A stretch of DNA of 56,999 bases, the filler included, from Dimargaris cristalligena (lineage: Eukaryota): assembly GCA_003614675.1 (NCBI GenBank). It is 2 parts of 2 records of this genome, joined end to end, with 100 filler letters (N's around TTAATTAATTAA, not from the genome) between each part and the next. Parts side by side here need not be neighbours in the genome. Positions count along the whole stretch, not along the records: positions 28,689 to 56,999 come from ML002501.1; 1 more part is not named here. One strand, given 5' to 3'. Positions within the stretch are counted from its first letter, which is position 1. Each line of letters opens with the position of its first letter. Under the pieces are notes generated by a model. It was not told the origin of the DNA. It was given only the letters and a program-made list of their open reading frames with translations, and did not search any database. Positions 3,925 through 56,999 of the stretch are shown piece after piece. The position numbers and the translations under genes are program-made.

Positions 3925-6900
3925 TTACGCATCAGCCGAAGTAGGGCTTAATGAAATAACCGGTTCATTTGAATCACCGGCATTATTCTTATCGACGGAT
4001 TCCGATTTCACAGCATCGTCCGTCATCGGTTCGCTTAATGGAGGAGGAAAAGCAGTGAGGGGCGGCGACTGAGCCTCGGCCTGAGTGGGTGTCTGGGTCG
4101 GAGGAAGCGGCGAAGTGGCGGATTGGGCAGTGGTGGTAATAGTAGCTGTTGCCTGTACATGGGCCGGTGGAGCTGCCATTGGTGGAAGCAGTGACTGAGC
4201 ATCACCGAAATGGGATAGGAAGTCCGGGTGTTGTTGTTGATGTTGATGTTGTCCAGCAGCTATACTCATATTCATATTCATGTCCATACCCATATCGATG
4301 TCCATTTCCATATCCATCGACATCGGATCGTGATGAGGGTCCGTAAAGTCCAGCCCTAGGTCAGCTATACCCCCACGGGGACGATCCGGGGAGAGACAGA
4401 ACGAATCCGAGATGACTCCACCCCCGCCGAGACGGGTTCCATGGAGTCCGTTGATTCCTAACCCAATGTCACTGCGGCCGCTTCCACCCAAGTTTTCCGA
4501 ATGGGGATGGCGGGGCGGTGAAATCAAATGGTCGCCGGCTACGAGCATACCGTTGCTTTCATCGATATCTTCAATATCACCATTGTAAAAATGACCACCG
4601 TTAGTAGCAATCCGGCCGGCCCGATAACCGTTTAGCGAATCACCACCCATGAGGTCCAGTGCCGAGGTAGAATGCGGGGGCGACAGGCGCCCACTTTCCC
4701 CCATTAAGCGACGGGAACTGACTTCCTCAAGTCCCGGTGGGGTCAGTCGAGAGGAGGGTAATGGAGTTGAGAGAGATCCACGTCCGACTCCTTCGCCGAC
4801 ACCCGCCATAACATGGGCCGGGGCCGTCGTTTTAGCCAAGAGAGTTGATTCATCGTCACCATCCTCATCGACATCTTGGAAAATCTCTTCTTCGTCATCC
4901 TCCTCATGACCGTCGATACCAGTGTGGGGTAAGTTTTCATCGACATTCCCGTCGCCGTTCGGTGGGTCGTCGACGACCATGATTTCACCGAACGCGTACG
5001 GAACGCCCAGTCGCACCGCACATACCGGACACTGGTACTGATCCAACCGACATGCGTCCAGGACGGGTACATGCACACACTCCAGGTGAAACCATTGCCG
5101 ACAGGTATCGCACGCGATCATGGCCTGCTGGGGGTCGAACGGTTGTTGACATAGACAATATAGTGCCGAACCGTCAAAGAGTTTCTGGCCAATGGGAATT
5201 CGGTGGGGGCCGGCGATGACAGTGGGTCCCTCGAATGGCGCAGCGGCTCCATCCTGGAAACCATTCCCGCCCCCCACACCACCTACATCATGACCATTAC
5301 CACCACCGGGGATCGAAAAACCGGCATGGGTTTCAAGACCCACCGTTCCCGGTGACGTGGAGGTGGGTGGTGGTGAAGCCAGCGCGGACCGTGACGGGAA
5401 GGTGGACGATGACGATGGTAGGCCACCCCGAATATTCTGTTGTTGGCGGCGCTCGTTGTCCAGCTGTTGTTTAATGCGAGGGCGCTCTTTGGATAATTCG
5501 GTTTGGATCCATTCACGGGCTAACCGGTCGTCCGGACGAACCGCTAGACGTAGGTACATGGTCAATTTACGCAGGTCGGCCTCTTCGTAGGGTAAGGACA
5601 CCTCTACTCCCTCACACCGCCGGATAAGGGCCTGGTAAAGTGCTAGTAAGCCTAATGGGGTAGGGGATTTCCGCCGGTCGGTACCCGCTGTCATTGAGTT
5701 GGTGGCCATGGACGATGCAGAAGGGGAAGCAGATGCAGACGATGAGGGGGACGTAGCCGACGTACCCGCATGGTAGGAAGGGTGTGGTCGCGATAGCTGT
5801 GAAGGCGGTGGCGGTGGCGGTGGGGCCAAGTGGGCCGCCCCACCCACGGTCTTACCCCCGGTGGATGGTCTCGTTCCCTTCATACCGGGAATATCGATTA
5901 ATTTCTGCAGCTCCAGGGCCTGCAAGACGGCGCTGCGGAACCTCGACATGTCCAAGATGATAGTGACGAGGGGGTCCAGTTCCTGGGTCACAAAAGGCAG
6001 CTTCTCGCCCTCCTGAGCGTGGGCAATGAGGGTTTCGAGGGAGGGTCGTTTGGTGGGGTGGGGCATATCGACGTGGGCGGGGTCACAAATGGGGCACACA
6101 AAGTATGATAGGGCTTTGGTTTCGCGGCGGGAGATTTTGAGGCAACCACCGTGGTACCACTCGTGGCAAATATCACACTCGACCATGAACCCCTGTTCGG
6201 GCTGACGGCAGACACAGTACAAGGACGACGACGAAGAGCCGGCCGAGTCCCGGCGCCGGCGGTGTTCGGCGGAAAACGACTCATTGGGGTGCTGGTGGGG
6301 GTTGTATTCCGTTAGGGACGAGAGGAGGGGACGCGGTTTGCCCGTCGCCGAGCGGGACAGGAATTCGTTCGTCTCCGCCGCGCCGGCGGTCCCCAGGGTA
6401 TAGGCCAAACTTAGGGCCGGCGGGCTATGAGTACACCGCTTAACCGCCTCTTCCACTTCCAATAGCATTTCCACCCATTTTTTGGGCATGTTGCCGCGCG
6501 CGAAGAGTTTCTTACCGCGCAGGATCCACGAGTCAATCTGGGCCAAATCGTCCTTCAGCTCACCAATGACGGGGGGCCGAAAAGCCGGTGGGTTGAGGTA
6601 GAGTTGGTCAAACTGTTCCAGTAGGGACCGGAGACTGGCCATGAGGGGGCGCTTGGTCACGTCGCGGTGTTTCGTGCGGGCCACGGCCGAATTGGCTTCG
6701 GCAAGGAGATGGCTGAACTCTTTGCCCATGTGTTGGATCTTGGTGTAGACGGGGGGTTCGAAGGGGAGGAGGTGGAACCCGTCGCGTAAAATTCCCTGCA
6801 CCTCTTCGAGGGTCACTTCGGTTTTATCGAGGAACTCCTGGGCCCGATCGCCCCACTGTTGGCCTAGGCTGCGGACCTGGAGCAGGGCCACAAAGAGACA

Positions 6901-9900
6901 ATTGTCGCTCTGGATATGCCCCTCCACTGCCTCCTCCAGCAAACCGATAAACTCGTCAAAGGAAAGTTTGTCCGGAAACTCAAACCAGGAGGCGGTCAGT
7001 GTGGTGGGATCAGCGTGGAGGGCGGAAGCGGCCCGGGTGAAGGCGGTCTGGGCCCGCAGCGACCACTGGAGCCCCCCTAGGTAGCCCCGCAATTCCGCGA
7101 GTTCCGGAACGTACACAGGAAGGGCGAGACCGCGTTCGATAATGCGGTCCAATGCGGCGACGGTATTCCGGAGCACTTCAAGTCGGTGGGGGTCCCCCAC
7201 TTTGGCGAGGGTGAAGGTGGGTGGACTGGGCTGGAACAGGTAGAGGTCGCCTAAGCGGACGAGAAAGGACTGCAATTCGTGGTGGTAGTCGAGGACGCGT
7301 TGCCTCAGTTCCCGTAGAAGGTGGATTTCGGGCGCGTCGAACGCAAGGTTTTCAGCTCGGGTGAGGAGCTCATCTAGTCGGTTGAGGGATTGGGTGGCGG
7401 GAGCTGGGGTGGTTGGCTTAGACCCCTGGGCGGCTGGGATGAACGACCGGGCCAGTTCCAACAGAGCGGGGTCATCGGACATGGCAGCAACGGTGGATTG
7501 GAAACGGGGGGGCTCCGCATCCACCATGGGCGCGAAGGGCACGCGGTAGAGTGCGAGATAAACGGCAGGAGTTAGACGGTGAGGGGCGGCCGCGGTAGGG
7601 GAAGACGATGCTGAAGGAGAGGAGAGGGATGGGTAAACGGAGGCAGAGGTGGTCGAATAAGGAACGGAAAAGGAGGGAGAATTCGAATGGGATGGAGGAG
7701 GAACAACAGAGGAAGGGGAATGGAAGGAGGACGCTTGCGTAGATTTGGCTTGGGGTTGGCTGGGGTACGGCAGGTGGTGGTGGTAATAAGAGGAGGAGGA
7801 GGACAAAGAGTAGTGCTGGGTAGAGGAGAGAAGGTGCTCCTCGTCTTCGGCGACTTCCACCTGCCGCCGCCCCTCACTTTCCCCATCCGTCGTGTCCTCT
7901 TCAATCATCTCACCACTATTACTATTACTAATAGTAGCAGTAGTTGCTTCACTTCTCCTACCCGCCGTTCTTCGTCTTCCGCTTCTTCTTTCCTCCCCCA
8001 CGATCACCTGATCGGCAGCTGCACCACCACTATTGGAAGGAGTTGCCGCAGCAGCAGTCTCCACCACCCCCCGCCGCCTCTTAGTAGTGGGCTGGGCGCG
8101 TAGGTCGGTCGGGTAGCGTAACCGGAGAAACTGGTGGGCCTCCCGAACCCACGTCAGCACGCGACCCACGAATAGTTGAAGTACTCTAGCATCGTGAATG
8201 ACAGAAGGAATGAGGGCAGCCTCAACTAATAATTGGCACATTAGCAGTAAGTGGGGCTTGAAGGTAGCAATGGGGGTGTATGAAAGAGTGGGAACGACCA
8301 CCCCCCGCCGAACCCCACCGCCCCTCTCTGCCGCTGACGACGCAACTGATGGTGGTAGCGAGGGCGAGGGTGAGCGGGTTGCCGACGCCGTCAAGAGGGC
8401 CGTCGGGCTGGTAGGGGCGGTGGTGGTAGTAGTGGAGAGTGAAGGTGAAAAACTACCAGAAAGCATAAGTTGTCGAAATCTACGCACCCATTTTTTGGAC
8501 ACTGTGGCCAGGGAAACGATCTTGTCGGTGAGTTCACAGAGTTGGTGGTCCGAGTAGCGGAGCTCCACGTGTCGAGCCGAGGGGGGACAGTCGCAGAGCT
8601 AGTGCGGGCGGGATAAACATAGAATACATTCATAATTAGTTAGTTAGTCCAGACGACGGCGGTTCCTTTCTCACCAGTGTGCAAGTCACACAATATGGGG
8701 GGTATGCCTCTCTTGCTTTCTGCTAATGATTCCGTGTGAGGGGGAAGAAGTATGCTTTCCAAATCTATGGTAGGGAGGGGTAAAACTGCCCTATAATATA
8801 ATAATAATTACCAAATAGGTGGTGGAGGAGGAGGAGGTATACCACCAACTCCTCTCCCCACCAACTGGGAAAAACGATCCCCACACCCAGCCCAACTTAC
8901 CTGTTCCCAGTGCTGAAGGCAGCTGATGCGGGTGGTGCAGTTACAGGTCACCGCTGACAGGTAGGAAAAGGCCTTACAGTGGCAACACTGATTCTCCTCG
9001 TCCGGTGCGGGAAGCGCGGGCGGACGTTCTTCGTCCTTTCCGCTGCGGGCGACCGTACTAGACACTAACCCACGCTGCCGTACGGCGGCCCGGTCGAGAA
9101 GCTCCCGGTCACGTAGTTGGGTCATGTGGTGATGGAGCCTGTAATGATGGAGTATGGGGAGGGGAAGTGGACGTGAAGTCAAGTCAAGATGGAAGCACCG
9201 AAACAGAAGCAATCATAGACATGTAGGGAAAGAAGCTAGGCATTAGTCATGTATTCCTCTATGAGGGAGGGGGCATGGTACGAGCCAGTCAAATTACTCA
9301 GTATATCACACATCCCTCCTATCATTCGTCCTACGAAACCTCTATTGGAGGATCGTAACACGCAATCCTTAAAGGCTCCAAAGCAAATATTAATAATAAT
9401 AGCAGCATATAACTGCATTTCCCATTACTTACCATTCGGCTACTTCGGTAGACTGCGTATAACTGGCAATGGTCCAGAGCAGCTCGTCGTGGGAGAACAC
9501 CGGGAGTCGCTGGTATTCCTGGTACCGCCGAACACTATCCAGGCCGAAGGGCACCCAGTCGGGGGTAGCGAAATTGACCGCTTCGGCGAAGTTGAACCCG
9601 TGGTTGAAGCCCGCGTGATACGATTTGGGGAACGTCACCACAAACTGGCCCGGTCGCTGGTCCAGGGCGTACACGTCGACTCCGCTTTGCCGCAGCGTGC
9701 CTGGCGACAGCATCGTCACCAACTGGAACAGCAGATCCGGCTGCTGCTCGAACAACTCCGGCACCGCGCGCTGGATGGCCCGTTCGAATTGGTCGGCCGC
9801 CGCCCCGGGGATGCCGTACCACGTCTTGGTGTCCCCCCAGTGCATATAGTTGATGGAATAGGTATAATGGTCCTCGTTGTGCCAGCAAAACGTCGAGAAG

Positions 9901-11831
9901 CACATGCCCACGTAGAGCCAGGGGTTCATCATCCCAGAGATATCCGACTTGATGAAGGAAAACAGCGACTGCGGTAGAATGGGGATGACGTTGAGGTTCC
10001 ACGGGTCAAGGGAGTAGGGATCAAGGGGGTTGCGTTCCTTGGTGGGAAAAGCGCTGCCGTGCTGCATGGAGTGCAAATCAGCCCCGTATTCGACTTCGAC
10101 CGCTTCATAAGGGGATTCGACCAAGCGCCAGAATTCCGCCTCCACCACCTGCTCCGGGACTTTGCCCTCGACGAGCTCGTCGGTGGTGTCCCCCACCGCC
10201 GCCCCGGCGGGCGAGTCGAAATAGGAGGCAAACCAGTTCTTCTTGAAGGTGTTGCACTTCTTCTGGAACGCGTGGAGGGAGTACTCGCCTCCGTCTTCGA
10301 AACCAAAATCGCCGCCGGCCTGGAGGATACACTGGAGGCAGTACCAGTCCGTCCGGGGAACCTTGGAGAGTGGCGGATCGAGGCAGTAGAGATGGAAGCC
10401 GTGATCACAGCCGTCGCAGAGTAGCATTTGCTCCCCTTTTTCGGATGAATGGCAGATTTGACAGGAATCACTCTGAGCATCCGCCCCTTCGTCGGCATCG
10501 TCGTCTTCGTCTTTTTCAGCTGTCTCTTCGACCCCCTCGTTTGTTGCTTTCTTTGTCGGTTCTTCCACTTCCTCTACTTCTTTTTTTGGATCGGGTTTGA
10601 CGGGTGCGGGGAAGTGAATCCGAGGCCGACCGGGTCGCCGGGGAGTAGTGGTGGTGGTGGAGACGGCGGGAGTAGCGGTCTTCACTTTTGGTGGGGGGTG
10701 GGGGGGTAAAGCGGGCGACTTAGCACCCCCATGTTCGTCCCCTGGTGTGCCACCCACCTTACGGCGTTTGGACCGACGGGGTGTGATGGTATCGGTCGGC
10801 CCACCGGAGCTAGAGTGTAGGGTATCGCTGGTATCATTAGACCGCTCACTCATCACCGACAAGGCCGGACTACCGGGGCGGAGCTCGTCCTCACGTTTGG
10901 GAGTGACCGCAGTGAGGGGGGTAGTACCGGTTAGTGGCAGGGGTGGGGGTGGGGGCGGACTGAGAGGAACACCGTCCCGCCCATGGGAGTGACTGGCCAA
11001 GTCGCGCCGGGGAGTGGTGCTGCTGCTAGTAGTGGTAGCAGCTGTGGCGGTAGTGGGGGGTTGGCCTGGGGTGGTCGGCTCGGTTTTCTTGACCTTGGCC
11101 AGATAGAGTTCGTAGGGCAAGACGATGTTGGTGTAGGCCTTTTTAAGGGAATTGGACAGGGAAGTACACGAGGCGCGGTGGTAGTTGAGAACGCGCCCGA
11201 TTTCGGCCCATTTCTTGGCGGCGGTGACTTTGAGGTACCCGCCCCGTTGATCGACCTCTTTTTTCAGACTGTAGAGATCGATGGGCTTTTTAGCCAATTG
11301 GGGTACCTTCATGCCCGGATTCCCTTGTTGGGCGTGGAACTTGTAAAGTTGCTCCAGGTAATTGAGATTGGCGCGGGTTTTACCCTCGAGGGAATTGAGC
11401 TGTTGTTTGCGGGTGTGGAAGCGGAACACTTCCGTGTCTAACGCGAATGTCGGGGCCCACTGGGCGGGCGGGATGATTTTGCAGAGGCCAGCGTGTTCGG
11501 CCAGTGGGCGGATTTTCTCAATGTACTGCAGGGGATTGGCAAACTCCTCGGGGGTGGGGTAGAAGACGGGGGCTTCGGGGAGTCCGAAATGGCGATTCCG
11601 TGGGGTGGTTGGTGGCGGAGGGGAGGAAGCGGAGGCGGAACCGAGGGGGGAAGTGGTCTGGTGGGAAGGAGGGTCCTTGGGAGTAGTGCTGGCCGGCGGG
11701 GGAGGGGGCGTGGAGGAGGCCGGGGAGGCTCGTTCCTGGTAAGGGGTCCGAACGGAGCGCATGTCTAGCCGGGGGGCCCTGGGCGGGCCGTCGGCGACCA
11801 GAGGCGTGGGACCAACGTGGACCTTTTTCAT
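3925..11831 (-). CDS. KDM5: KDM5/JARID1-family histone H3K4 demethylase (JmjN-ARID-PHD-JmjC-C5HC2-PLU1-PHD-PHD), ~2436 aa; exons 11831-9433, 9138-8901, 8598-3925
   Basis: JmjN (EAPVFYPTPEEFANPLQYI), ARID (IDLYSLKKEV..GGY..KKWAEIG), PHD (CQIC..LLCDGCDHGFHLYC), JmjC with intact Fe ligands (WHNEDH...YHAGFNHG), C5HC2 finger (QCCHCK..CNC..SCLQH..LCDC) and two further PHDs (LYCVC..CDICHEWYHGGC; LYCLC..CDTCRQWFHLEC). GTAAGT..AG introns join the three ORFs in frame. Confidence 0.95.
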
Positions 11832-12299
11832 GGGGGTGGGTCAATGTGTAGATTAGAGATGGAAGAAAGGCGTACGCACTGGTTGGTGAATCGCAGGAAC
11901 CGAAGTGGACGAGTACCAAGGGTTTATAGCACGCGATAGTGGATAAGAAGAGGGACGTGAGTGAAACGGCAGAGAGGGAAAGGGATAGAGCGAACGGCTT
12001 AGCCGAACTGGATGCGACTATTAGGGCTAGCTAGAGCAGCCAGCGGTATTAAAGAGGCAAATATATATATATATATATAGATAGATAGATAGACAGCGGT
12101 GAAGTAGGGCAAGGAAAGTCACGTCGTACGTGGAATATAAAAAACCAGCGGTACTGAGAAATATTTTTTGGGTTTGAGTGAATGGACCAGAAGAGAGTAT
12201 AAGGAAATGGTCCGCGCCCAGGTAATAAGGAGGCGGGAAGCTCCAATAGCCGAAAAAAAGCGAGAGAGGGGAAATAGTCGGGTGGGAGAATAGAAGGAA

Positions 12300-18965: not shown

Positions 18966-19799
18966 CGGTATAATGATTAGCCTTTTTCGGGGGCTACTCT
19001 ATTTTAGTCAAATGGCCTATCTTATCTAGCTGTGGGCTGTTTGTGGATTGGGTACGACTCATCTTTAACATACTTAATATAATGCCCTAATGGATGCGCA
19101 ATGTTGCCCTGCTGCTCTCTTATATAAATATATATTACCATAGAGCGAGTTGATACGCACTGACTTTCAATAGTATGGTATGGCAAGTGAGATAATAAAA
19201 GGGAGGGCAGTAATTTTGGTGGGTGGAGTGCGAATTTTAGAGTGTGAGCACGCCATTTCCCTCTTTCCTTACTAGTCCAGTAGAATGACGAATAGGGCAG
19301 GTGACTTTTTTCCTTTACCAAGAATGTGCAGACCCCCCCAGCTATATACAGACAATCAAAATGTCTAGCTGATTAAACAACACCACGCACACACTTGGTT
19401 TCAGAACTTTCTCCGCTTTAAAGGAAAAGGGAGAAACCCAAGGCGTAGAGCGCGAGTCTTTAATTTCTCCCTTTCTTTATTATTTAAATACCTTACCTCA
19501 GTACCGAGCTCTGTTTTAATATATATATATATATCTGTGCTCAGGACATTCATTGCCCAATATTATTCTCGTTGTGCTAGTTTATTTGGTATTTATCAAC
19601 TCCCTATTTCTAACCACCCCTCTTCCCCTTATTTCTCGACTTTAAAACTATATAGGTTCGGGGCTCCTTTAGGAATTGCCAATTCCCCCTCTCTTTATTC
19701 ACATTCGCATTCTTGTTAATTGTTCGCCCTATTTGCCCACACACCACTCTACCACCACCACTTCCTCTCTTTCACATTCTCCTTCTCAGTCCCTTCGAG

Positions 19800-20873
19800 A
19801 TGGTCGTCGTCTCCTTTGGCGCATTCCTCTCGGGCCTGCTCGGCTGGCTCTACTTTCTCGCCTGGTCTGTCAGTTTCTACCCCCAGGCTATCCTCAACTA
19901 CCGCCGCAAGAGCGTCCAGGGCCTGTCCATCGATTTCTTAGTCTATAATGCCTTTGGGTTCGCTTGTTACGCCTTGTACAACCTCACTTTTTACGCCAGT
20001 CCGGCCATCCGGCGGGAATACGAAGACCGCAACGAAGGGAAGAGCAACCTGGTGCAACTCAACGACGTGTTTTTTGCAGTACATGCCTTCTTGATTGCGT
20101 CGTTTACGCTTGGACAGTCGTTTGTGTATAAAGTAAGAAGGGATAACCATGGGTTTAAATTATAAGGGAAGGTGCGAGGGCCCTCCCTCAATCCCCTGCA
20201 TGGTCGACATTCCCAAATAGAGATATATTCTCGGGTGTTACTTGCGCGCCTGCCTGCTGCCTCTGACCCTGAAGTACTTTTATAGCACCCCCCTCCCCAC
20301 CACCCTCACTAACCCAGATATTTCCTCGAATTGTCGTCCACCATCTACCCTGTACCTTCCACCCCTCAGCGCAATACCACCCAGGAACTATCATTCGTGG
20401 CCAAGGCCTTTCTGTTCATCTCGGGCATTGGGATAGCCGCGCTCAGCGTCGGCATTACGTTTCGGGCCGCCATGTGGATTGACCTCCTGTACTTCCTTTC
20501 CTACATCAAACTATTCATTAGCTTGGTCAAATACTGCCCGCAAGTCTATGTCAACTACAAGGCCCAGTCCACGGTGGGATGGAGCATCCATAACGTCCTC
20601 CTCGATTTGACCGGCGGGGTGCTGTCCATGTCGCAACTGGTGTTGGACGCCGCCCGGCTGGATAACTGGGGCGGGATTGCGGGCAATCCGGTGAAATTGG
20701 GCCTGGGTCTGGTGAGTATCGCCTTTGACCTGGTGTTCATCGTGCAACACTATGTGCTGTACCGCCGGAGTGCGGATTTCCAGCGCTTGGTTGACGACGA
20801 AGGGGACGAGTTCTTGGCCAGTGGGCCCGAAGACTCTTTGTCGGACTATCAGATTGAGCCCCGATCCTCTTGA
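19800..20873 (+). CDS. CTNS: Cystinosin/Ers1-like PQ-loop vacuolar cystine transporter; exons 19800-20132, 20370-20873
   Basis: GWLYFLAWSVSFYPQAILNYRRKSVQGLSIDF and KYCPQVYVNYKAQSTVGWSIHNVLLDLTGG, then NPVKLGLG..FDLVFIVQHYVLY: two PQ-loop repeats. Phase-0 GT-AG intron. Confidence 0.92.
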
Positions 20874-24988: not shown

Positions 24989-26262
24989 ATGTCCTTTTCA
25001 CTACCATTAGCGTTTGGGCGGTCTAGCCGATGGTCCGCATTCAATCTGCGGCAAGTCTATACCGCATGGTATGGGTCAGCCCGGTCTTATACTCGTCCAC
25101 TTCGATATAGCCATTCCCAGGCCCGACCAGAAGTCAACTTTCAAGTACAGTCTGGTGGTATAATAGTAGAAGCAGCGGCGGCAGCTGTCGAAACACCACT
25201 ACCAACCACAGCCACCGTAGCCGGAATTAAAAGCATAGGTTCAACAATGCAGGTAGGGACAGCGGTCGAGTGTAATAACTTAATATTTGCCGAAGGAGTC
25301 CGGAAAGTGCTTCGGACTATTGCCACACCAGGTAAGCCATATAGGTCTTTGTGGTATATTCGTATAAGCATGCTGTAACCGGTCCAAGGTTATCGAGAGG
25401 GCCTTGTCACCGTTGATCTAGTGGGTTTTATCATTATAGACTCTGTTGCCTAGCGAGATATTAATAGCGTTATTACACAATCTATACTTTTACACCTTAC
25501 GCGGGACCTTCCTCCCCCCCTTTTTTTCTACCAATACGCCTTTATTGATTTATCGCAGTCGTCGTATTGACCACTTACGACCCCGAACATGAACGGTCTG
25601 TTGGTATGACCGTTGGCTCCTTCTCCTCGGTCTCGCTACGACCGCCTATAGTCTCCTTCAACATTCGCAATCCATCCCGGTTCGGCGAAGCCTTGCATCG
25701 CAGTCGTCGGGTGGTCATTAATATTCTGGCCGGCGATCAGACTGCCCTAAGCGCCATGTTCGCGGATCCCCATCAACAATACCGTCCCGACCATAGTCCA
25801 TTTCGGGACATTCCACACACCCTTTTAACCGAAATGAAAGAGCAATATACTTTTACTGCAACCACCACCACCACCTCTACTACTACCACTTCTACTAGTA
25901 CTACCACCTTTGCTAATGCCACTATTGCCCAACTACACCCAATCCCGGTTTTAAAGGGAACGGTTGGGGGATTAGAGGGTTCGGTTCGGGAGATTGTACC
26001 CATGGGTGACCATGAGGTATGGTTTTTTAATGTACAGCAGTGTTGGGACCATTCCGCCTCCCTTAACCGGCCTTCGGCGGAAACGGAAGCTGCGGCCAGC
26101 TATCGGAATGATGGCCCTACTGATTCGCCCGTAACGGAACATACGTTGCATACCCCAAGTAATGCCACTTACCCACCGTCGGCTTTGCTCTACTGTAATC
26201 GGAGGTATCATGCTCTTGACTCTCACTCGGAACTGGGGCGACCTCTTTCAGGCAAGAGTTAG
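24989..26262 (+). CDS. Flavin-reductase-like FMN-binding protein, probably mitochondria-targeted; exons 24989-25331, 25559-26262
   Basis: VRKVLRTIATPVVVLTT..GMTVGSFSSVSLRPPIVSFNI..INILA..F..GDHEVW..LLYCNRRY is the flavin-reductase-like domain pattern. The Arg/Ser-rich, acid-free N-terminus resembles a mitochondrial presequence. Confidence 0.85.
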
Positions 26263-28588: not shown

Positions 28589-28688
28589 NNNNNNNNNNNN
28601 NNNNNNNNNNNNNNNNNNNNNNNNNNNNNNNNTTAATTAATTAANNNNNNNNNNNNNNNNNNNNNNNNNNNNNNNNNNNNNNNNNNNN
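28589..28688. other. Artificial 100-bp contig linker (44 N + TTAATTAATTAA + 44 N)
   Basis: Symmetric N runs flank a palindromic 12-mer that has stop codons in all six frames. Confidence 0.95.
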
Positions 28689-35928: not shown

Positions 35929-37632
35929 TAGCAATGCGGCTTTCAAGCACCGGTTAGCGGGTATTTGGAGCGAGATTGAAGTATGGCAGGTTGATTTCTC
36001 ATTTCCTATGTCATTGATAACACCACCCACCTCCTCCCGTTGTTTAAATCATAATGTCAACCGAGAACCACCTAATCACCTCATATACCAGCAAAGAAGG
36101 TTCGGGGTAAGGGGTGGCAACTGAACACTTTCATCCCATTTGACTTAATAGGAACATACGGATGGGAAGCGGCATCGAAAAGTTCATACAATCGACATGA
36201 ACTGCGTAAAAACGGGATTTTACTGCTTCGCCCACATTAAATTCTCTAATCTGACGCAGATATTTCCGAAAACCAATAAAACCTTGTATATCCGTAAAAC
36301 CAACCAAGTCAAATGTGACGACATAATACTGTAGGTAAGTGCTATACTGCCCAAGGTGAAAGTGGAGGTGTAGTAGAGAATTTAAGCGTTTGTTTAGCCT
36401 GCATCCTCAGGCATTTAGGATTGCTAGATGAATGGAAGGAACCCCAAGCTACTCAAGTACTACTATTACACCGACCACAAACCGGCCGGTTTGAGGTTTC
36501 TTTCTTTCCGTCCCCCTCCTCCTGACCTCTCATTTCCTTTTCTTATTCTATGATAGCCAACCTCGACTCAATGGCACTCGGGGGCCTAGAAAATCAGCCA
36601 TTGGTTCAGCGAAAATCTTGTGGCATCGTCGAGGGTACACTGGGTTTAGATGGATACCTAAAGCCACCACCACCATATCTCCTTGTTACTCCCCTTCCCC
36701 CAACTCACCAGTCCCCCGTCCTGCCACCCAGCCTTCCGCCGCCCTTGCCTTGTATACCTGACCCCTTCTCCCCCCTTTTACATTACACCCCCTTTGGCCT
36801 CGGGTCCTTTCGTCGCCAATCAATGGTCCACAGTAGAGAGAAGGGTCTATTTAAGCCCCGATGCGTCCACTCCACCTCGGTTGTTCTTTTATTTTTCCCG
36901 TTCGTTTGTTACATATATTAGGTTCATCAATCCAACCCGCGCGTCTTTCCGATTATACTTTACGAGTCCCACTGTCTTTTATAGATTTAATTTTACTACT
37001 TTTCCCCTTGACTGTCAACTCTACTGACTATTCTATTATTCGCCTACTCGTGACCTCTCGCAATAGCCGACTCCAACTATTGCCAAAGTCGTCGGAATTC
37101 CATACATATTCATTCATGGTTTAGACGCCGACTTTTATTTCGCCGCATCCTGTACCCCATACCAAAGGAGTCTTAATAGTCTTGGCTCCTTCGAGTACAA
37201 CCCAACCAAGTTTTTATTGGGTCCTGGGTTAGAATGGGCGGTTGGTACTATTGCTATCCTTCGTTTTCCGCTTAACTCCAAGTAGTTCTTTATATGTTTT
37301 CATCTCAACTAGCGACTGGCTTATTGAAGGATATTCGCACATCATTCTATGCGGTTAATTATCTCGTGCCTTGATCTGGCGACTTTGGCCATTGCATTTT
37401 AGCTTTAGTTAGACAGCTATAGCTGAAATCCGGTTCGTATATCTATATATAGATAGATATATATATAATAATTGTTTATTAGTTACTACTATTTCCGCCA
37501 TATTATCTGGGAATAGTCCATTGTATATGTATCTTTTAACCATTTTCCAACTCTTTTTACACATTAATCACATTTATCATTTCAATTATAGCATCCAATA
37601 GCTTTGATATATAGTGTAGTATCTATTCAACC

Positions 37633-39624
37633 ATGCTAGCATCCGCATCGTCTCAGCCCCGCCTGGGCCACTGTCCCGGTCGGTATCTATGGAAGGTGCT
37701 TTGCTTTTTCCTTATTTTGACTCATTTGGTACCGCACGTTCGGAGTAACAACCAAACCGAACAGCTCAGTATCCATTCCAACGAATTCCGGCAGTATTCC
37801 CTCGAAGGGCAGATGCAGATTTCCCCAGCCATGGGCTTGCTCGTGGGCACGAGTAGCGAGTATGACCACATCGACTGTAGCGGTATCTTTTTGACCCGTC
37901 GGATATTTCTGACCGCGGCGTATTGCGTTACGAACCCCGACGAATCTTCCATTGATCCAAAATTCCTGGTGGTATTGGCCCGGGGCCATCCCCCGCATAA
38001 CCAAGTCACTTCTTTTAAAGTGGCTTCGGTGCTACCCCACCAAAACTATGACCGAAATCTGCAACAGGTAGGTTCAATTCACTCAAGTTTTTATTTATTT
38101 ATTTAGGAAATTATATATTTAGATTATTTTATGACCCGGTCTCTAATGGAGAGTGGAGGCGGGGAAGATGACTACAATGGTCGGCCTACTACTGAAACCT
38201 ACTCTACATTACATTGTATTAATTAGGAATTCAGTAACCGGGTGGACTGTATGAGTTTCCCGTGCAAGAGAAGTATCTCGTCATAAACCACCCAGGGAAT
38301 GGGCGAGTGGGTGGTCCATTCAGAGTGGTTCGGTGGATTGGGGGACATCTGTCACCGCCTGTCTATTCGTCTCCTTCACCGGCTCCCTTCCCCAATTCAT
38401 CTGACCAAGGGCCTACGGATGCCATTTGTTTTGGTTCAGTAGCATTGGGGAGAGGGGGGGGGGGGAGTACCACAGGGGCCTGGATGATTCACACATTATT
38501 GAATTTGAATTTCCCTATTTGTGCAACTGCTTGGTTAGACAACCTTACTCCCATGAGAGGAGGGGTGGGCTTTTTTAATATGGCTAGAGTTGGATACGTC
38601 GGCAATGTGGTCCTGCACCGGTTTCAGAGCCCAGGTGCTACAATGGCTTATCATTATGCGCCTCCTCTTGCTTGAGCGGCCCATGCTGCCTTCTATTTTT
38701 ACGTCTTGTCCAGCAACCGTTGTTTGGTGTCTGCACTGCCCAGTGTGGTGGTACTTTACTCAGCACATGCCCCATTGCGCTCAACATTCCCTATCTGTTC
38801 CCGCTGTATCTCATCCGGTATCGTACCTTATTTTCCACCTCCTAACCCCCCCTCCCCCCTTCTAGAATGATATTGCCATGGTTCGACTCCAGGAACTCTA
38901 CACTGGCCTAAAAAAAGAGAATGTGCCGAAGCTGTACGCCTTTGAGCAAAAGCCCGAAGCCCTCCAAAACCGCGTTCCCACGGAGATTCCCGAGAACGAC
39001 GAGCAGTATTACGACAACCGAGAAGAGGATGAAGTAGCGGAGAGTAACAAACGTTTCCTCATTTCCGACTGGGTGACGGGAGAGGGCCAGGGGGGTGGTG
39101 TCCACCATAGCGACCTGACACCGCCGGCCCCGGCCAACATCTTAGCCCGCCACCGGCAAGTGGTGAATTGCCGGGCCTACCCGCGTTACTTCCAGGATTT
39201 TAAGAAAAACCTCCAACACCGCTCCATTATTTGCGTTAAACCGTCCTCGGAGGACATTCCGTGCGTTGGCAAGGCGGGCTGCCCCTTGTGGATTCGGACC
39301 GGACCTTGGGGGCGGGAACTCAAACTGGCCGGGTTTAAAAGTTTCTCCTACACCCGTGACGGTATTACGGTTCACGATTGCTCCATTAAGAGTCTGATCA
39401 ATGTGTACACCCGGTTGGATAATTTCATGGCCTGGATTCGTGTCAATAGTAAACTGAGCGACGAACACTTGATTTCCGGGACCCGGAGTTTCACCGAATC
39501 GGACTTCACTACTTCCGTGTCGGCCCCGACAATATCCGGCTTTTGGCCTACGTTTTGGCGATCAGTGGTTGGACCCGTTGTCATTTGTACGTTAATTATT
39601 TTCACCAACCCTACTCTATTATAA
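37633..39624 (+). CDS. Secreted/anchored trypsin-fold (S1) serine protease homolog, catalytically inactive; exons 37633-38067, 38866-39624
   Basis: Signal peptide (LWKVLCFFLILTHLVPHVRS), CSGIFLTRRIFLTAAYCV, PHQNYD..NDIAMVRL, PCVGKAGCPLW, LAGFKSF, VYTRLDNFMAWI and a hydrophobic C-terminal tail. 798-bp phase-0 intron. Confidence 0.85.
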
Positions 39625-44700: not shown

Positions 44701-46236
44701 CATTTTTGGGCCTTCGGAAAATAACCATTATTCTAATATGCCACTTGATACGACCATTTTTAGATGTATGTTTATTACGCAGGTTATAGGAAGTGGTGGA
44801 GCAAGAGCGGGAGACACCAATAGAACTATTAATACACGGCTCCGGAGATGGATAGGTGAGAGCACCCCTGGAGTACAGTGATATCTTTAACCCCAGGTTC
44901 CACTCCGCAAACGCTGCATATCCTAGTACTTAACAGGAAACTCGCATTCCATTTCCATGGCTTTACAAGGCAATTTTATCCGAAGAATTAAATAATGAAT
45001 TCTGTTCCCAATTTTCGGATCCCACTACGTGCAAATCCGTCCATTAAAGTAAACATCCGACCGCAGGGCTTGATTCTTTGAACCTGCCCTACCGTTGGTA
45101 TTGCTGTTTCAGAGACTGGTTAAACAGACGAAGGGGAGGTGCCTGAGAGTAAAGTAAGGGAACAATATTCAAGTATTGCAAAAGGTGGACTAGTACCGGC
45201 ATTTAGGCGTACACTGTTGTACGCCCTGGTCGATATCCTCACTTAGTGTTTCCTTGGGGACCGCTGCTTCTGCTCCCTTTGGTGTAGGTCGGAGGGTAAG
45301 TGATTCTCCCCCAACAGATTTGGCTTAGTCCCCTTGCACTACTGTAGCCTACTTATACTCAATGACTCATAGTTTCTGCCGCAATTCCCTCTCTTCTCCC
45401 CACGTATCCTATTGATAGCCTCTTCCTTCTACCCTGTCGTCTCGCCCTAGTCGTATCCCCTCTTCCTTTCCGACCAGTTTCCCCTTTTCGACCGCACTAT
45501 AGGAATTATTGGCTAGCCTATGAATGACTTCACCGTTGGTTAGACCAGAATTCATCAATCCAAAGGGGGTTATAAAAGAGGCGATATTTCCTGTCGCTCC
45601 TAGTGTCCCTTTCCCCATCTTTATTTTCCCTCGGCCTATCCCCCTTGCATTTTCGTTTCTCCTCCTTTTTTTTTGGTAGTGTTTGCCACCCGTTCTCTAG
45701 CCTAGCGTATCCTAATAAAGGGGTTTTATACGGTTTAGTACTTGAGGTGGACGGTTATTTTGACTTGAGTCACCCCCCTCAATCCCCATTTATATATATT
45801 AAGCAACCAGCCATCGCACCGTCCAACCTGCTCCGGTTCATACATGAGACACTGTGCTCTTTCCCCAATTTCTCCATTTATTTCACCGGCCTTGAGCGGC
45901 AATTTTGACTAAATTGCCTCCCATCCTGTCCGACTTTAATAAACTCGTTCGGTTTAGTCCTTCTTTACTACCTAATCCCCCCAAACGACCATCTTTAATA
46001 TCCCCATTTTCTCTCATTTACCACTTTGCGGCCAATTTCTAGCCATCGCCACATTGAATACTCCTTTGATATACCTATAGAACCTCACCATTACCCATAA
46101 TACTATTATTATTTCCTATAGACACCCCTTCCCTTTTTTTTATACATTTTTGCTATACCCTTAAGTATCTGGGTTCGAGTGCCCTTTAATATCTATTTTT
46201 ATTTGGAGTAGTTTTCCTAAAGAACATCCCGACATC

Positions 46237-48360
46237 ATGGATACCAAATTTCCCTCGGACAGCGATTCGAGCGTGGAAAAGGTTTCCACTTTTGTGAGCA
46301 GCGATGACCAAGGCACGGCTCTCGAAAAACAGGGCGATTTGGGCCCACCGACCCTGAGCGGGCCCATCATGGACAAGAAGGAACTGTGGGGTTGGTACGG
46401 TATCTCATGGGCCGTGGAGCCTTACTCAGTCGTGGTGAGCGCCGTTTTCTTACCCCTGGTCCTCGAAAGTCTGGCCCACCAGGCCGGTTTCCAAGCCGAC
46501 CGCGTTACCCCATGCGACGAAGCGACCCTGTCCCGCGACTGCCAGGTCCTGTTTGGCGCTAGCTGGATCACTACCACGAGCCTGCCGTTGTACTGTTCGG
46601 CGATTAGCGTTGTTCTGCAGGCCTTCCTATTCGTAGGTCTGAGTTCCCTGGCCGACCACGGTGGTAAGTAGTAACTCCCTTTTTGGGAATTGATGCAGAC
46701 ATATGGAGACTGCAGAGAAGTATCCCTTTTTCTTTGTGCACTTCCTTTTTTATCGGAGAATACCCCGTGCATACTCTCAATTTTCACTTGCCATCATGGC
46801 TAATAGGTGATGTGGATGGAACTGGGGGTGTCCCGGGCCTGTTGTTTAATTTCCCTATTCATCCAAAGGGTGGTGAATAGGAGCAAGATAACGGAGCTTT
46901 GGAGGGGGGCTTGGCCTCTGCCACCTCATAACTTCACCCACTACTGCCTACGCCCCTGGGCCAGCATGACCAGTGCCACTGTTGCCTCTCCTTTCTTAAA
47001 TTAGTCTCCGGTTTACCACTTACAGTATATCCTCGTATACCATACCCCGCTGTATCCTGCAGGTGCGCATCGCTCCACCTGTCGATTATTTACATGACCC
47101 GTTCGGAAACTAACTCCCATATATGCAAAAATCCATCTAATTTTGCCTACGTTTTATCACTCCTACGCTCCACGCTTACCGTTGCCACAATCCATACATA
47201 AATACACAACTACCGTAGACTGGCGCAAGACGTTCCTCATCTTCTTCAACATCGCCGGTGCGCTGTCCACCATCTGTCTGTTCGCCGTCTTCAAACCCGA
47301 GCTCTACGGCCTGGCCACCGCACTGACCATTATCAGCAATCTCTGTTTCGGCGCTGTGCACGTTTTCTTCTACGCTTATTTGCACACGCTGACCGAACAC
47401 CACCCCGAGGTGGTGGAGGCGGCGCGTTTGGAAACGGAGGAGGAGCGCCGGGCCGTCCGGGAACGGGTGTCCAATTCCATTTCGGGCAACTGTTTCGCCA
47501 TCGGGTACGGCGGGGCCTTGATCATGCTTGTCGTGGGGGCTTTGATTGTCTATTTTTGCAACCAAACCAACTACAGCATGCTCATCTCGTGTGGCCTGTC
47601 CGGTATCTGGTGGCTATTTTTCACCCTGGTGCCCGCGTTGTGGCTGAAGCGGCGGCCGGGGCCGCCCCTGCCGGAGGGCGAAAACTACCTGTTTTATTCG
47701 TTTAAACAAGTTGGGCGTACGTTCCGCCAAGCGGGCAAACTGTCCAATACTTTCCTGTTTCTGATGGCCTGGTTTTTCCTGTCCGACGGTTACAGTACCA
47801 TTGTGTCCGTCTCTATTCTATTCGTCAAGAGTAACCTCAAGGCCAACAACATCCAGCTCATCATCGCCGCTTTTATCGTGCCTTTTTCCTCCATCATTGG
47901 TAATTTCCTGTTTTTGTTCATCCAGCGTCGCTTGAAGATATCTACCCGGAATATGATTATCATCATTGGTACGTTGTACATTCTCCTCCCCATCTACGGG
48001 ATTCTGGGCTTCTTCACCCCGTTTGGTCTGCGCCACATTTACGAGATTTACGTGGTGGCGGTGTACCACGGGCTCATGTTCGGCGCCGTACAGTCCTTCT
48101 GCCGGGTGCTGTTCTGCGAGTTGTTGCCCCCCGGTCACGAAAACGAGTTCTTCGGCTTGTACGAAATTACCGACAAGGGTAGTTCCTGGATCGGACCGTT
48201 GGTCTCGGGTGCCATTTCCGATCTCACCGGGGAGCTGCGCTACGCGTTCTACTTCTTATTGGCTATGCTGGCCATTCCTGTGGTCATTCTCTACTTCGTC
48301 GACGTCGAAAAGGGCAAGAAGGAGGCGATTGCTTTCTCCAAGCGTCAGAAGCGGCATTAA
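46237..48360 (+). CDS. ATG22: Atg22-family MFS vacuolar amino-acid efflux transporter; exons 46237-46663, 47219-48360
   Basis: KKELWGWYGISWAVEPY..FLPLVLE, ADHGDWRK, WLKRRPGPPLP..F.FL.AWFFLSDG, QSFCRVLFCELLPPGHENEFFGLYEITDKGSSWIGP..G.LRYAF. Phase-1 GT-AG intron. Confidence 0.93.
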
Positions 48361-50276: not shown

Positions 50277-51724
50277 GGTGGCGAATAATAGGAGGGAGAG
50301 TTGGAAAAAAGAGAATACAAAGTTAAGTAAATGAAGAAAGAGTGGAAGTGATGGATAATTGATCAGATTGGTAGGTTAATTGAGTGATTGAGCAGATATG
50401 GTGAAAAATAAGAAGAGTAGGACAACGGGTCTCTTTATATGAGACTGGTCGCTCTTGGATATAGCCCATGGTTGGTATCGATTTGTCGATTTGTTTTCGG
50501 TAATAAAACTATTCCCCGAATTGCCTTTGGACATATGTCATGACTTTTAATGCTATGCATCATAGGCGCATCTCTCGCGTCCAACCTGCTTCAGGGATGA
50601 CATCAACATAATAATGAGGCGTGGTCCCCCCACTTTCGTCTCAGGTAGTCTAGGTTGGGCAATACTCCCAAATCTATCCAGCTGCCTAAAAGCCCATTAC
50701 CATGGAATAACCGATTTTCGTCACAGGATCTCAGCTTCGGCCGCTTTGTGAAATGACGGCGATGATGACGACGAATATAAACAATACTGCGGTATTATGG
50801 CGAAATTTTCCCTAGATTGACGATGGGCCAACCATCTCAAAAAACAGCCTTCCATTTTTCGACGACATTACCTAACTTCTACGCATCCGTTTGCTCATTG
50901 GGTGCGAAGCCGTTTTTCGTCGTGAGCGGATTTTTTCGACAGGATAAACCAATGAATACAAAGTGATACACTCTACTGACTATACTACTCCCTCCCTAGT
51001 GATATTGGCCACAATCGTCATTTGCCCGGAATAGATTAATATCCCCTCGCCGCTTCCCCGCCTTACCACTACTACTGGGGAAAATAGGTGCCGGCATTGC
51101 TTTCCAAATTAATAGCCAGGGAATTCGTCTTCTTGGTATCCGCATATCCCCTCCCCACATGCGACCACCGTAGTTGGTTGGCTACCATCCCAACTATTTC
51201 CAGGGTGGACTATTCCAAAGGGTGTGCAGCCATACTATAGGCCTTGCTGCCACTTGGCTTCTGGTAATCGCCATGGCAATAAATAGAAAGAATGATATTC
51301 CACTCATATTCAACTGAATTATTTTGGGATATTGAAGAAGGGGAGGGCACTCGTTTGTGGATACTTACTACCCAGCCACGATTAGTTCATTTTTAATACG
51401 AATTCCTTCTATCTGCCCAACCTGGCTGGTTTCACACTCATAAGTTCTATTTTTGCTTTATAGCCGGCCTAAATAGCACACTACTGGTGTATAAGTGTTA
51501 AGCCCAGTGCAATTGTATAGATATCCAAATGAAATGTAAATAGTAAAAGAGGAGGGGGAAATTAATTTTTAACAGGTAAAACCTGTCCCACCAAATGATG
51601 TATTTTTGTTATACAGCTGGACTGCGTATCTCTACCATCTCAATGATTCACCAAGTCTCGTGGTGTCGACCACTTGGCCAGACGACTCAAACGTTGAATC
51701 GGTCCCGGATATTCCCCCACAGCC

Positions 51725-52853
51725 CTACCCATTTAATGAGTTACGAACCAATTTACACACTGGGCCGTAATCCAGACCAAACGGGTCCGGGTATAAAAAT
51801 ACTGACGGCAGGCTGGGACCAGCCGGGGCCAATCCCGATAGGAAGTCGATGAGCTCGTTACGGATGGGACCCTTCGGGCAAACGGGTCGAGAGGCGGGGG
51901 TGGATGAAGCCAACTGGGGGGGAATCGACATCTGGGGGGATGGTGATGGTTTTGGCGGTTCTTGGCGGGCACTGCTCGGCGGTTGAGTGGTTTTGGCAGC
52001 GGGGGTGGTCAGGGGGATGATGGAAGGGGGCTTGAGGCCCATCTTCTTCGTGCACGGGGGCTGGGGAGTAGTAGTTTTGGGTTGATCGACTGGTTTCGGC
52101 AACGGGCCAGTGGATCCCAGGGTCTTGCTTCGCGCCAAGGCTTTTTTTATGTGTTTTTTACCAATACAATGCGGTGAGACGTCGTTGGCGCAAAGCACGC
52201 GTGTGCAGGCTAAGCATTTGTACCAACCGGACTCATCCAACAAGATATGCTCATCTATATTAGTGGGGACCTTTGGTTTTTGGTATCAGTGAAGGTTATG
52301 CGTTAAACAAAATAGGCAAGTGGTCACAATTTCAGGGTTAGCAATCGCAAGAGGAGCATACCCAAGGTCTCTCTCTCTCTTTCTTGCCAGCCCAAAAAAA
52401 GTAATATATATATATATATATAAAGAAAAGGAAATATCAAGTCGCATAAGAATATCATGTATAATAATAGTGGGAGCATTTGAGGATAACGGGGTAAATA
52501 ACACATACCTTGAATGTACGCTGTTTCTTTTTGGCAGGGGGCTGCTGGGCGGCATCCGGGTCCTTCGACCCCGCGTTTGGACCAAATATAGCGGCTTGAG
52601 CAGCTTTGGAGGCTGGATGAAGTTTAGCTGCTTTAGCAAGTTTGTCGGTTGGAGCGGGTTTGGCGGCTTTAGAAGATTTGGCGGGTTTAGCAGGTTTAGA
52701 AGTTGGAGCAGACTCTGGCGTAGTGGCTTTGGATCGAGGGCAAAGGACAGGTGGATCTACTCGGTTATCTACAAGGCAGTCCCGATCGGGGGAATGGGAT
52801 CTTGAATAGTACTCATCCTTTCGGGGGGTAGAGAGATTCTTAGAATCGGCCAT
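51725..52853 (-). CDS. Lys/Pro-rich protein with U1/matrin-type C2H2 zinc finger; exons 52853-52509, 52270-51725
   Basis: GTATGT donor after RTFK, GCTAAC branch point and AAG acceptor join two ORFs in frame (..TFK|VPTNIDEHILLDESGWYKCLACTRVLCANDVSPHCIGKKHIKK). NLS-like PPAKKKQR. Confidence 0.65.
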
Positions 52854-53675: not shown

Positions 53676-54723
53676 TCATTCATCATCTTCCCGCGGTCGC
53701 TTAATACTTGTGGAAGTTGCCTCCGAGGACTCCTCGGCCTGAAGATCGGCCGTTTCGGAAGGCTAGTTCAAGTAAGACGAAGTGTATTTTATTTATAGAG
53801 GTTAGGATCCCGTTTGTAGATAACATGTTGGGTCGAGACGAATAAATCACTATGCTAGTTATTTGAAGTCCAAAGTACAATTCCGTAAAAATATACAAAC
53901 AATAAATTACCTCGGCGGATTGCTTCATGGCTGCAATCTGTTGGGCAATGGAAGAGAGTTCCTCGCGCAGTTCGCGAAGTTCAGCCCGCTTGGCTTCAAT
54001 CACTGAGTGTTATTAGAAACAGGTTACAAAGATTGTATATAGAGCTTGATGGTTACGATAGGAAGGGGGTCTGTATAGATTCTGGGCTCATTACAGATTT
54101 CATCAGAATATGGGTAAGCCAAGGCTAGGGTAGGTCAGAGTGATTATAGTAGTAAGGGTTTTTGGTCCATAGGGAGCAATGGTTGGTAAACTACGAGAAA
54201 CTTACAGGCTAGCGGCTAAATAAGATGACAGAAAGGAGTCGATGGATTCAGGAAATCGGGGTAAGTTAGAGGCAAAAAGTCTCGGTATTAAGTTAGTAAA
54301 GCTAGTGAGTATACCACAGCCTATGCCATGGGTGAAGTGGGTAGCGATTGTGGCGGCGGAATAGGCCCCCTTAAATTGATCGTAAAATCTGGTATTCGTC
54401 TTACATCGTCCGGTTTGGGGAGCTCGATACTTGCCCATTCCTCTTCGGGTAATTCATATCTAGGAACAATGGGCATTGATTTAATAGAAAATAGGTTAAT
54501 AAAAATTGGACGAATCATTGTTGTTGTTTTTTTGAAAAATATGACTATACTGTCCAATATATGAATAAAATACAGGACCATTGATTAGGAGTTGAAAGAC
54601 GACAATATCCACTTACTGGTCTTTGTTCTCCTGGAGCTTTCGCCTGATTTCCTCGCGCGTTAATTTGGCTAATAACATAGGGTATACCAATTGAGACTCG
54701 GGGTTAGGTAGTTCTAAAACACA

Positions 54724-54764
<41 letters not shown>

Positions 54765-55397
54765 GATTATACGCCATTAACATGGTCGAACCGAATTATA
54801 CGTTGGACCATGGGACACTTACCACCTGTGTTAACAATGCAATTGTTTTTGCGTTTGATATCCGCACCCTGTTTTTTCGAATTCAGTTCACCAATGACAA
54901 AAGGATCAATGTGAAGGCCCGCAAACTCTAACGTTGTTGAATCCACAGACATATTTCATATAGGAGTGATTGAGAGCCATGCCACCCGAATCGATGAATA
55001 CCGGTTAGTACAATGTTATTTACAGGTTACTGGCGGCCATATAGCCTCTTACACCCGCAGTACCGCCCATTGGCAGTGGGTAGAAAACCACCCCAGCATA
55101 CTGCATTTAGACGACAAACTTACCGGCTGTACTTTGCTGACCCAGCATACGCTGGGCCTGGAGGTTCATTTGGGCGATAGTTTTACCAATGAGGCATTGC
55201 GAGTCAATGATTTTAGCCCAGTTACCGATGCCGAATCGCATAAGGGCTTTGCGAAGAATCTGGACTTCTTCTAGGGTCCACCCGGGGGACAGAGTACAAT
55301 TCCACAGACTGGCTGAGTCGTTGGAACGCAGGACGTTCCGCTGCCCCACGGGCATACTACGGGGTTTGAGAGCATCGGCAGATACAACGGTAGTCAT
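53676..55397 (-). CDS. p1 (Myb/HTH-like DNA-binding) subunit of the MTA1c/AMT1 ApT N6-adenine DNA methyltransferase complex, ~224 aa; exons 55397-55124, 54927-54823, 54668-54617, 54459-54405, 54215-54206, 54002-53911, 53762-53676
   Basis: Spliced product SLWNCTLSPGWTLEEVQILRKALMRFGIGNWAKIIDSQCLIGKTIAQMNLQAQRMLGQQSTAEFAGLHID..NSKKQGADIKRKNNCIVNTGAKLTREEIRRKLQENKDQYEL..IELPKP matches my recollection of ciliate p1 motif by motif (SLWNYTLSPGW..FGIG.W..CL.GK..Q.QRLLGQQS..F.GL.ID..RKNNCIINTG). Six GT-AG introns preserve frame. Confidence 0.85.
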
Positions 55398-56633: not shown

Positions 56634-56944
56634 ATGGAGAACATTGCCGAGGCCAGAGCCCGCTCGCAGGCCAAACTTATCACCACCTTTGAGAGCATTT
56701 TCCAGCGGTACAGCCAAGTCCCCGACGACGAATGCGACGAAATCGACCTAGCCGGGGAACAAATCGTAGTGGACCGGGGGGTATGGCATCGTCTACTGGA
56801 GGAAGAGAAGCAGACCTGCCGCCGACGCCGGCGTGACAAACACCCACAACAGCAACACCAACTAAAGCGGCAGCAGCCCTCACCATCACTCCCACCGAAT
56901 GAAACCGATCCCGACGGTTCCGAATCCCCGACTAGAGATAGTAT

Positions 56945-56999
<55 letters not shown>
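56634..56999 (+). CDS. SCM3: Scm3/HJURP-like CENP-A (CenH3) chaperone, 5' part, runs off the window end (not in ORF track)
   Basis: MENIAEARARSQAKLITTFESIFQRYSQVPDDECDEIDLAGEQIVVDRGVWHRL fits the Scm3 CENP-A-binding pattern (R..S..KL...FE.I..KY....DEIDL....IVVD.G). The frame is open to 56999. Confidence 0.8.
56946..56999 (+). repeat. (AGT)n microsatellite (poly-Ser in the Scm3 frame) at the window end
   Basis: Direct read. Confidence 0.95.

Follow-up and report, generated by a model that had tools for sequence, protein, structure and literature searches.

The gene on the minus strand at positions 53676-55397 of the window, by which we mean the whole 56,999-nucleotide stretch of Dimargaris cristalligena DNA that was analysed, most probably encodes P1 (AMTP1), which clamps the DNA but is not itself catalytic, as part of a working ApT 6mA writer, the MT-A70 adenine methyltransferase complex MTA1c (AMT1 complex); we give this reading a probability of about 0.9. 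That an MTA1c system exists in this fungal lineage is already known, and the catalytic partners of the species are in print: supplementary file 5 of PMC12019607 gives D. cristalligena accessions under Mta1, Mta9 and Mettl3, and the same paper tabulates P1 for Kickxellales and other Zoopagomycota. According to PMC12695648, p1 and p2 co-occur with AMT1 only, and the pathway is traced to the last eukaryotic common ancestor. The D. cristalligena P1 accession has no occurrence in the text-readable supplements of PMC12019607, the picture figures of which may show it, and its P2 was not found in those text-readable supplements either. What the P1 gene itself adds is little, a correct name for a protein labelled hypothetical in databases; more broadly, a mycoparasite appears to retain an entire four-subunit DNA 6mA writer alongside the RNA m6A pair METTL3-METTL14.

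Reading the three frames of the strand and listing donors and acceptors yielded a single gene of seven exons (Table 1), which splice into 675 nt coding for 224 amino acids with a single stop, and the exon count and protein length given in the initial annotation were borne out. The product is identical at 224 of 224 residues to the public protein P0001 (RKP37397.1, KAJ1991721.1); these entries are gene models as well, and the match is agreement with the junctions and not proof of them. The six introns measure 148-203 nt and all follow the GT-AG rule, with the donor GTAAGT in four, GTAAGA in one and GTAATT in one, and each contains at least one branch-point-like motif. Four splice models were compared. 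Without the 10-nt exon 5 the frame is lost and the protein stops at 177 aa; the models that either skip this exon or shorten it to 3 nt were rejected for their early stops at 177-178 aa and the loss of the C-terminal helix. The residues coded by the micro-exon are found again in the proteins of Dispira, Tieghemiomyces and D. verticillata, the three other Dimargaritales aligned. A model using the acceptor at 54714 stays open and gives 239 aa, and was set aside for adding 15 residues absent from all 22 aligned homologues; the branch-point-like motif of intron 2, moreover, falls within the 45 nt that this acceptor would turn into exon. On the homologues and the branch-point position together, the acceptor at 54669 is favoured. 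KL two residues past the NTG motif, as in the 224-aa form, is found in 92 of the 120 homologues listed.

Table 1. Exons of the P1 gene, genes of the methyltransferase families elsewhere in the genome, and other genes of the window. Exon and neighbour positions count along the window; partner genes are given by locus and contig.
Feature	Location	Strand	Size or extent	Remarks
P1 exon 1	55397-55124	-	274 nt, aa 1-91	N-terminal loop, PGW linker, Myb/homeodomain-like three-helix DNA-binding core, up to GQQS
P1 exon 2	54927-54823	-	105 nt, aa 92-126	p1-specific extension; ends in RKNNCI.NTG and the start of the clasp loop
P1 exon 3	54668-54617	-	52 nt, aa 127-144	basic helix, N-terminal domain
P1 exon 4	54459-54405	-	55 nt, aa 144-162	short helix and linker; conserved in fungal p1 proteins
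P1 exon 5	54215-54206	-	10-nt micro-exon, aa 163-166	C-terminal helix begins
P1 exon 6	54002-53911	-	92 nt, aa 166-196	long amphipathic helix
P1 exon 7	53762-53676	-	87 nt with TGA, aa 197-224 and stop	acidic, poorly conserved tail, basic KRPR end
MTA1/AMT1	L002:1495-2468, G000:C338	-	two exons	DPPW; upstream exon encodes long N-terminal helix
MTA9/AMT6-7-like exon	L005:1351-1800, G000:C189	+		DPPL replaces DPPW
METTL3	L001, G000:C486			E 3e-116
METTL14	L003/L004, G000:C374			E 4e-44
P2	L012:1093-1746, G000:C211	+	217 aa	intronless
PQ-loop protein	19656-20870	+		
Flavin reductase-like protein	25549-26259	+		
Trypsin-like	37615-38103	+		weak match
Atg22-like transporter	46165-48357	+		

The initial annotation had also called the gene fragmented, and this description is misleading: there is neither a stop nor a frameshift, only canonical introns, and the gene is, by its sequence, intact and single-copy. 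Searched against the genome, P0001 finds this gene as its sole locus, in six exon-sized matches on one contig. In a track of open reading frames, a 10-nt exon and six introns do look like a broken or decaying copy, but a frame that stays open via canonical introns, two identical public annotations, the single copy and an identity of 76-79% to two Dimargaritales relatives in the alignment make such decay highly improbable. Some public models of P1 in other fungi, by comparison, probably contain annotation errors (P0003, P0048, P0051, P0124 and P0127): P0003 lacks the stretch corresponding to Dimargaris exons 3-4, and the other suspect models are fusions to neighbouring genes, with small GTPase domains in Mucorales and a cupin/ARD domain in a Coemansia.

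The public labels of the protein, hypothetical protein of Dimargaris cristalligena in two NCBI annotations and Myb-like in UniRef, are those predicted for it in the initial annotation, and the second of them arises because Pfam yields the Myb-like domain alone: exon 1 matches PF00249 at E 3.1e-6 and P1 contains no other Pfam domain. One could accordingly take the protein for a general Myb/SANT transcription factor or a telomere-binding protein, unrelated to adenine methylation, and it fits such a role that the Myb domains of TRF2 and TERFA are the next-best matches and that the Rhizopus P1 recognises an AAC motif, as plant Myb factors do (PMC12019607). The top matches, however, are neither Myb repeats nor telobox domains. 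Searched by itself against solved structures, exon 1 finds three sequences of the Tetrahymena p1 (E 6e-22 to 1e-21) and, as the next family, TRF2 at 5.7e-4. Exon 2, which lies beyond the Myb core, matches p1 exclusively: of the 177,635 solved sequences, three pass E<=10, each a p1 chain with E between 7e-4 and 1e-3. A profile built from 32 homologues matches three p1 chains of Tetrahymena over positions 20-201 at E 1.5-2.5e-52, followed by TERFA at 5.8e-4 and the p2 chains at 0.009-0.013, which places p1 ahead of TRF by some 48 orders of magnitude. Of 281 candidate homologues, 185 passed E<=1e-10, with early-diverging fungi the source of 116 of the best 120 of the 185; GQQS is present in all of these 120 and RK..N[TS][GE] in 118. 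A transcription or telomere factor is thus very unlikely and, at the level of the protein family, these comparisons have already refuted it; orthology to P1 holds over the whole N-terminal domain, beyond the Myb core.

The initial annotation had proposed comparisons with the p1 of Tetrahymena and the P1 of Mucorales and would have been undone by a lack of similarity over the region GQQS..RKNNCI.NTG. The alignment to p1 spans that region, with the Tetrahymena p1 at the top of the profile search (E 1.5e-52), and the identity to P0125, the R. microsporus P1 (locus 216539), is 63% over 219 aa. Locus 216539 is the p1 entry of R. microsporus in supplementary file 4 of PMC12019607 and the protein studied at the bench; it was reached via its cluster, and the p1 entries published in the same file for Linderina (267705), Conidiobolus (4704), Syncephalis fuscata (440873) and Sporodiniella (440457) are among the homologues too.

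The predicted fold points the same way. The AlphaFold2 model of P1 has a mean pLDDT of 81 and a pTM of 0.69, with helices at residues 42-55, 60-65, 74-85, 131-145 and 163-194, the last of them with high confidence, and with low confidence beyond residue 200. Foldseek gives two matches at E<=0.001 (E 1e-10 and 1e-9), both to p1 chains from cryo-EM structures of MTA1c, and as modelled, the p1 fold, a homeodomain-like core with an extension and a separate C-terminal helix, is present. Sequence, profile and fold hence agree on the p1 identity that was first proposed. The fold is common to P1 and P2, and the chains at ranks 3-5 in Foldseek are those of p2, which raises the question of whether the protein could be the paralogous subunit P2; with scores of 262 bits to the published Rhizopus p1 vs 27 bits to the published Spizellomyces p2, and with a distinct P2 gene on another contig, the chance of this is close to negligible.

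The initial annotation had called for a search of the genome for MTA1 and MTA9, on the expectation that the fungus has an MTA1c system and with the absence of an MTA1 homologue as an argument to the contrary; both were found, and P2 too. The search with PF05063 gave five matches in four genes (Table 1). Locus L002 is MTA1, matching the Tetrahymena MTA1 at E 3e-72 vs METTL3 at 1e-34, and the MTA9 assignment of L005 has a modest margin, with one exon compared (MTA9 E 4.5e-11 vs MTA1 2.6e-9). Neither METTL4 nor AMT2/5 was among the five MT-A70 matches, which come from an exon-by-exon search and are a lower bound. A pattern search for p2 gave 13 matches at <=1 mismatch vs 9 in the reversed control and, because of this, only the single exact match, L012, was pursued, on homology; the similarity of L012 to solved structures is weak (Paramecium p2, E 0.011), while the published Spizellomyces p2 is matched at E 5e-54 with 61% identity. 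As MTA1, MTA9, P1 and P2 are all found, the whole MTA1c is encoded, on four separate contigs, and P1 is, on these matches, accompanied by an MTA1 bearing DPPW, an MTA9 and a P2.

By the same homology evidence, the RNA m6A pair METTL3-METTL14 is kept beside the DNA 6mA complex. We considered whether such co-retention might be novel for a land fungus and dismissed the idea, METTL3-METTL14 together with MTA1c having been published for chytrids, Umbelopsis, Endogone and Glomeromycota (PMC12019607). In the portion of that paper's accession list that was covered (part 4 of 5), no row for Zoopagomycota was found in the Mettl14 column, and the METTL14 of D. cristalligena was not found in the list; the Dimargaris METTL14 is therefore at most a small addition.

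Work on the ciliate complex suggests how the parts of the protein may function. The Tetrahymena complex has MTA1 as its catalytic subunit and MTA9 as a scaffold, p2 makes stable binding of SAM possible, and p1 and p2 contribute to the DNA channel (PMC9174199); the N-terminal domain of p1 is disordered before the substrate arrives and then closes on the DNA opposite MTA1-MTA9, and K57A and K101A are the p1 mutations with the largest loss of activity (10.1101/2025.04.24.650485). When the Tetrahymena residues were mapped to Dimargaris by hand from the alignments, K57 (K72), K101 (K118), Q67 (Q82), R68 (R83), Q73 (Q88), S13 (S28), S15 (S30) and PGW (38-40) were found to be kept, and the positions of K114 and K118 to be occupied by Arg. 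Among the DNA contacts, K14 is changed to A29, K44 to N59, K46 to A61, Y63 to N78, M64 to L79 and R117 to I134, and in the clasp loop D110 is changed to A127 and N111 to K128; the changed contact positions are mostly common to other fungal P1 proteins. Judged from this mapping, the residues of mutational importance (K57, K101 and Q73, and the N-terminal loop) are retained and the lesser contacts K44, K46, Y63 and R117 are not. Exons 1-3 encode the clamp domain, which by comparison with Tetrahymena would close over the DNA. In the Tetrahymena p1, the helix L167-L181 anchors on the N-terminal helix of MTA1 in a leucine-zipper-like manner (PMC9174199), and by analogy we infer that the 32-residue helix of exons 5-6 (163-194) pairs with the N-terminal helix of MTA1, the part coded by exon 6 making the contact. 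Its hydrophobic residues L174, L177, L181, I184 and I188 are spaced 3-4-3-4, and its alignment with the ciliate helix in the 32-homologue profile is loose. The C-terminal end is basic in most aligned homologues, and the terminal KRPR is possibly a nuclear signal.

The recognition helix deserves a separate comment. It has I74 and N78 where WER has N106 and N110, and so differs from the two-asparagine helix of the Mucorales-type P1, a feature that, with its AAC motif, defines a subtype of P1 and not the family. Ile at the first asparagine position is an already published exception of Zoopagomycota (PMC12019607). Among the homologues listed, with lineages assigned from the source names, the first position is Asn in none of 42 Zoopagomycota (all have Ile or Val), in 68 of 69 Mucoromycota and in four of five chytrids, and the remaining four of the 120 have Ile or Val. 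The possibility that I74 marks a defective P1 was set aside: the Tetrahymena p1 likewise has Ile at this position, and genera with Ile or Val have 1-1.6% 6mA.

What the complex achieves in the genome is a different matter. In Mucor, knockouts of p1 and mta1 remove all symmetric 6mA sites (PMC11258239); the Rhizopus P1 interacts with Mta1 and occupies 6mA-rich linker DNA after gene starts, and the genes of the Rhizopus complex appear to be essential (PMC12019607). Dimargaris has no occurrence in the supplementary file of PMC11258239 that holds the 6mA table and no entry in the supplements of PMC12695648. The ApT ratio of 1.10 and the TAT ratio of 1.27 come from the 57-kb window only and are uninformative on 6mA; in most species, ApT content has no clear link to 6mA (PMC12695648). 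The presence of the genes does not guarantee abundant 6mA, as seen in Mucor lusitanicus, and it is conceivable that P1 is a true P1 and the complex works, and that symmetric 6mA is nevertheless rare, with few loci marked and the complex not the main adenine writer. Although it carries mta1, mta9 and p1, M. lusitanicus has very few symmetric sites (PMC11258239), the symmetric sites being 0.32% of the total according to the review PMC13297926; Glomeromycota and chytrids have less than 0.3% 6mA though their representatives encode the genes, and Linderina has 0.31% (PMC11258239). Relatives speak against such a low output. Kickxellomycota and Zoopagomycota are counted with the groups richest in 6mA (0.8-3.8%), and five of the six relatives' values lie at about 1% or above: 0.98 and 1.24% have been published for Coemansia, 1.6% for Basidiobolus and 1.07 and 1.51% for Syncephalis. 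As D. cristalligena also encodes all four subunits, we regard sparse methylation as unlikely, albeit as the one alternative with a real share of the doubt, and keep to P1 as part of a working ApT 6mA writer.

The P2 gene leads to a result that, in a small field, may carry more weight than the P1 gene itself, as it questions the subunit make-up of the best-studied fungal complex. The Rhizopus complex is described as Mta1/Mta9/P1 (PMC12019607, PMC13297926), and Mucor is stated to lack p2 (PMC11258239). Of 469 candidates found from L012, 128 reached E<=1e-10, and among these are, judged by homology, P2 orthologues of R. microsporus (P0254), Linderina pennispora, Syncephalis fuscata, Absidia repens and Coemansia spiralis; P0254 belongs to the same locus-tag set as the listed p1 of R. 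microsporus. Supplementary file 4 of PMC12019607 leaves p2 empty for these five fungi and for five other species with p1. The five proteins score 146-194 bits with 48-60% identity to the Spizellomyces p2 vs 22-27 bits to p1. Of the five other species, the fungi M. lusitanicus, Hesseltinella, Rhizophagus and Rhizoclosmatium gave no P2 in the matches listed (best 120 of 128), and other Mucor species did. No published correction of the fungal p2 absence was found by title or abstract. Because P2 orthologues are found in five fungi tabulated without P2, the published three-subunit complex may reflect under-detection of P2.

In ciliates, MTA1 needs p2 to bind SAM stably (PMC9174199), and a fungal P2 would accordingly be expected to be essential. 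If P2 were truly lost or decayed in M. lusitanicus, this could explain the near-absence of symmetric 6mA in that species. If the four-subunit reading is true, Dimargaris, with its four subunits, ciliate-like Ile and both METTL3 and METTL14, would approximate the ancestral fungal set. The joint reading, according to which the fungal 6mA writer has four subunits almost everywhere, with P2 both overlooked and essential and Dimargaris near the ancestral set, we hold as tentative and at somewhat short of even odds.

The surroundings of the P1 gene were also annotated. Its head-to-head neighbour at 56634-56999 (+), about 1.24 kb from the P1 start, is the N-terminus of a protein with an Scm3 domain (Pfam E 5e-14), Scm3 being a centromeric histone chaperone family, and the reading enters an AGT repeat at the end of the window. 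Downstream and on the strand of P1, a gene at 51200-52852 (-) begins rich in proline and alanine and has, near 52250-52150, a CxxC...H zinc-finger-like motif; four pieces of this gene gave no Pfam match. At 3928-11840 (-) lies a KDM5/JARID1-type H3K4 demethylase (JmjN, ARID, PHD, JmjC, PLU-1), which is on the other contig of the window and therefore provides no evidence for clustering with P1. The contigs (C293/C294) are joined at 28589-28688, where two 44-N runs flank 12 bases.

Among known systems, the DNA-binding domains of TRF1/TRF2 and c-Myb (PF00249) share the three-helix core at residues ~40-77, leaving the N-terminal loop, the extension of exons 2-4 and the C-terminal helix unmatched. 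p2/AMTP2 has a homologous Myb/homeodomain-like fold (profile E 0.009; third to fifth in Foldseek) but differs by an identity of ~25% over just 55 aa, by the lack of a p1-type MTA1-binding C-terminal helix and by having a gene of its own, L012. The p1/AMTP1 of Tetrahymena thermophila (PDB 7F4L, 7YI8, 8XYL, 9U9E, 9O6K; PMC9174199) is alike in its fold and in the order of its motifs, whereas the Dimargaris protein is without ~19 residues before the C-terminal helix, without the long ciliate tail and with changes at K44, K46, Y63, R117 and, in the clasp loop, the DN. Rhizopus microsporus and Mucor lusitanicus have a P1 (Lax et al. 2024, PMC11258239; 2025, PMC12019607) that resembles the Dimargaris protein in the N-terminal domain and the C-terminal helix, and the partners in the genome are the same. 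The Rhizopus protein has 301 aa vs 224 aa in Dimargaris, the acidic tail of which is shorter; at the position of I74, the P1 of Mucoromycota has Asn (68 of the 69 listed); and Dimargaris keeps METTL3 and METTL14, for which both cells are blank for Mucorales in the table of PMC12019607.
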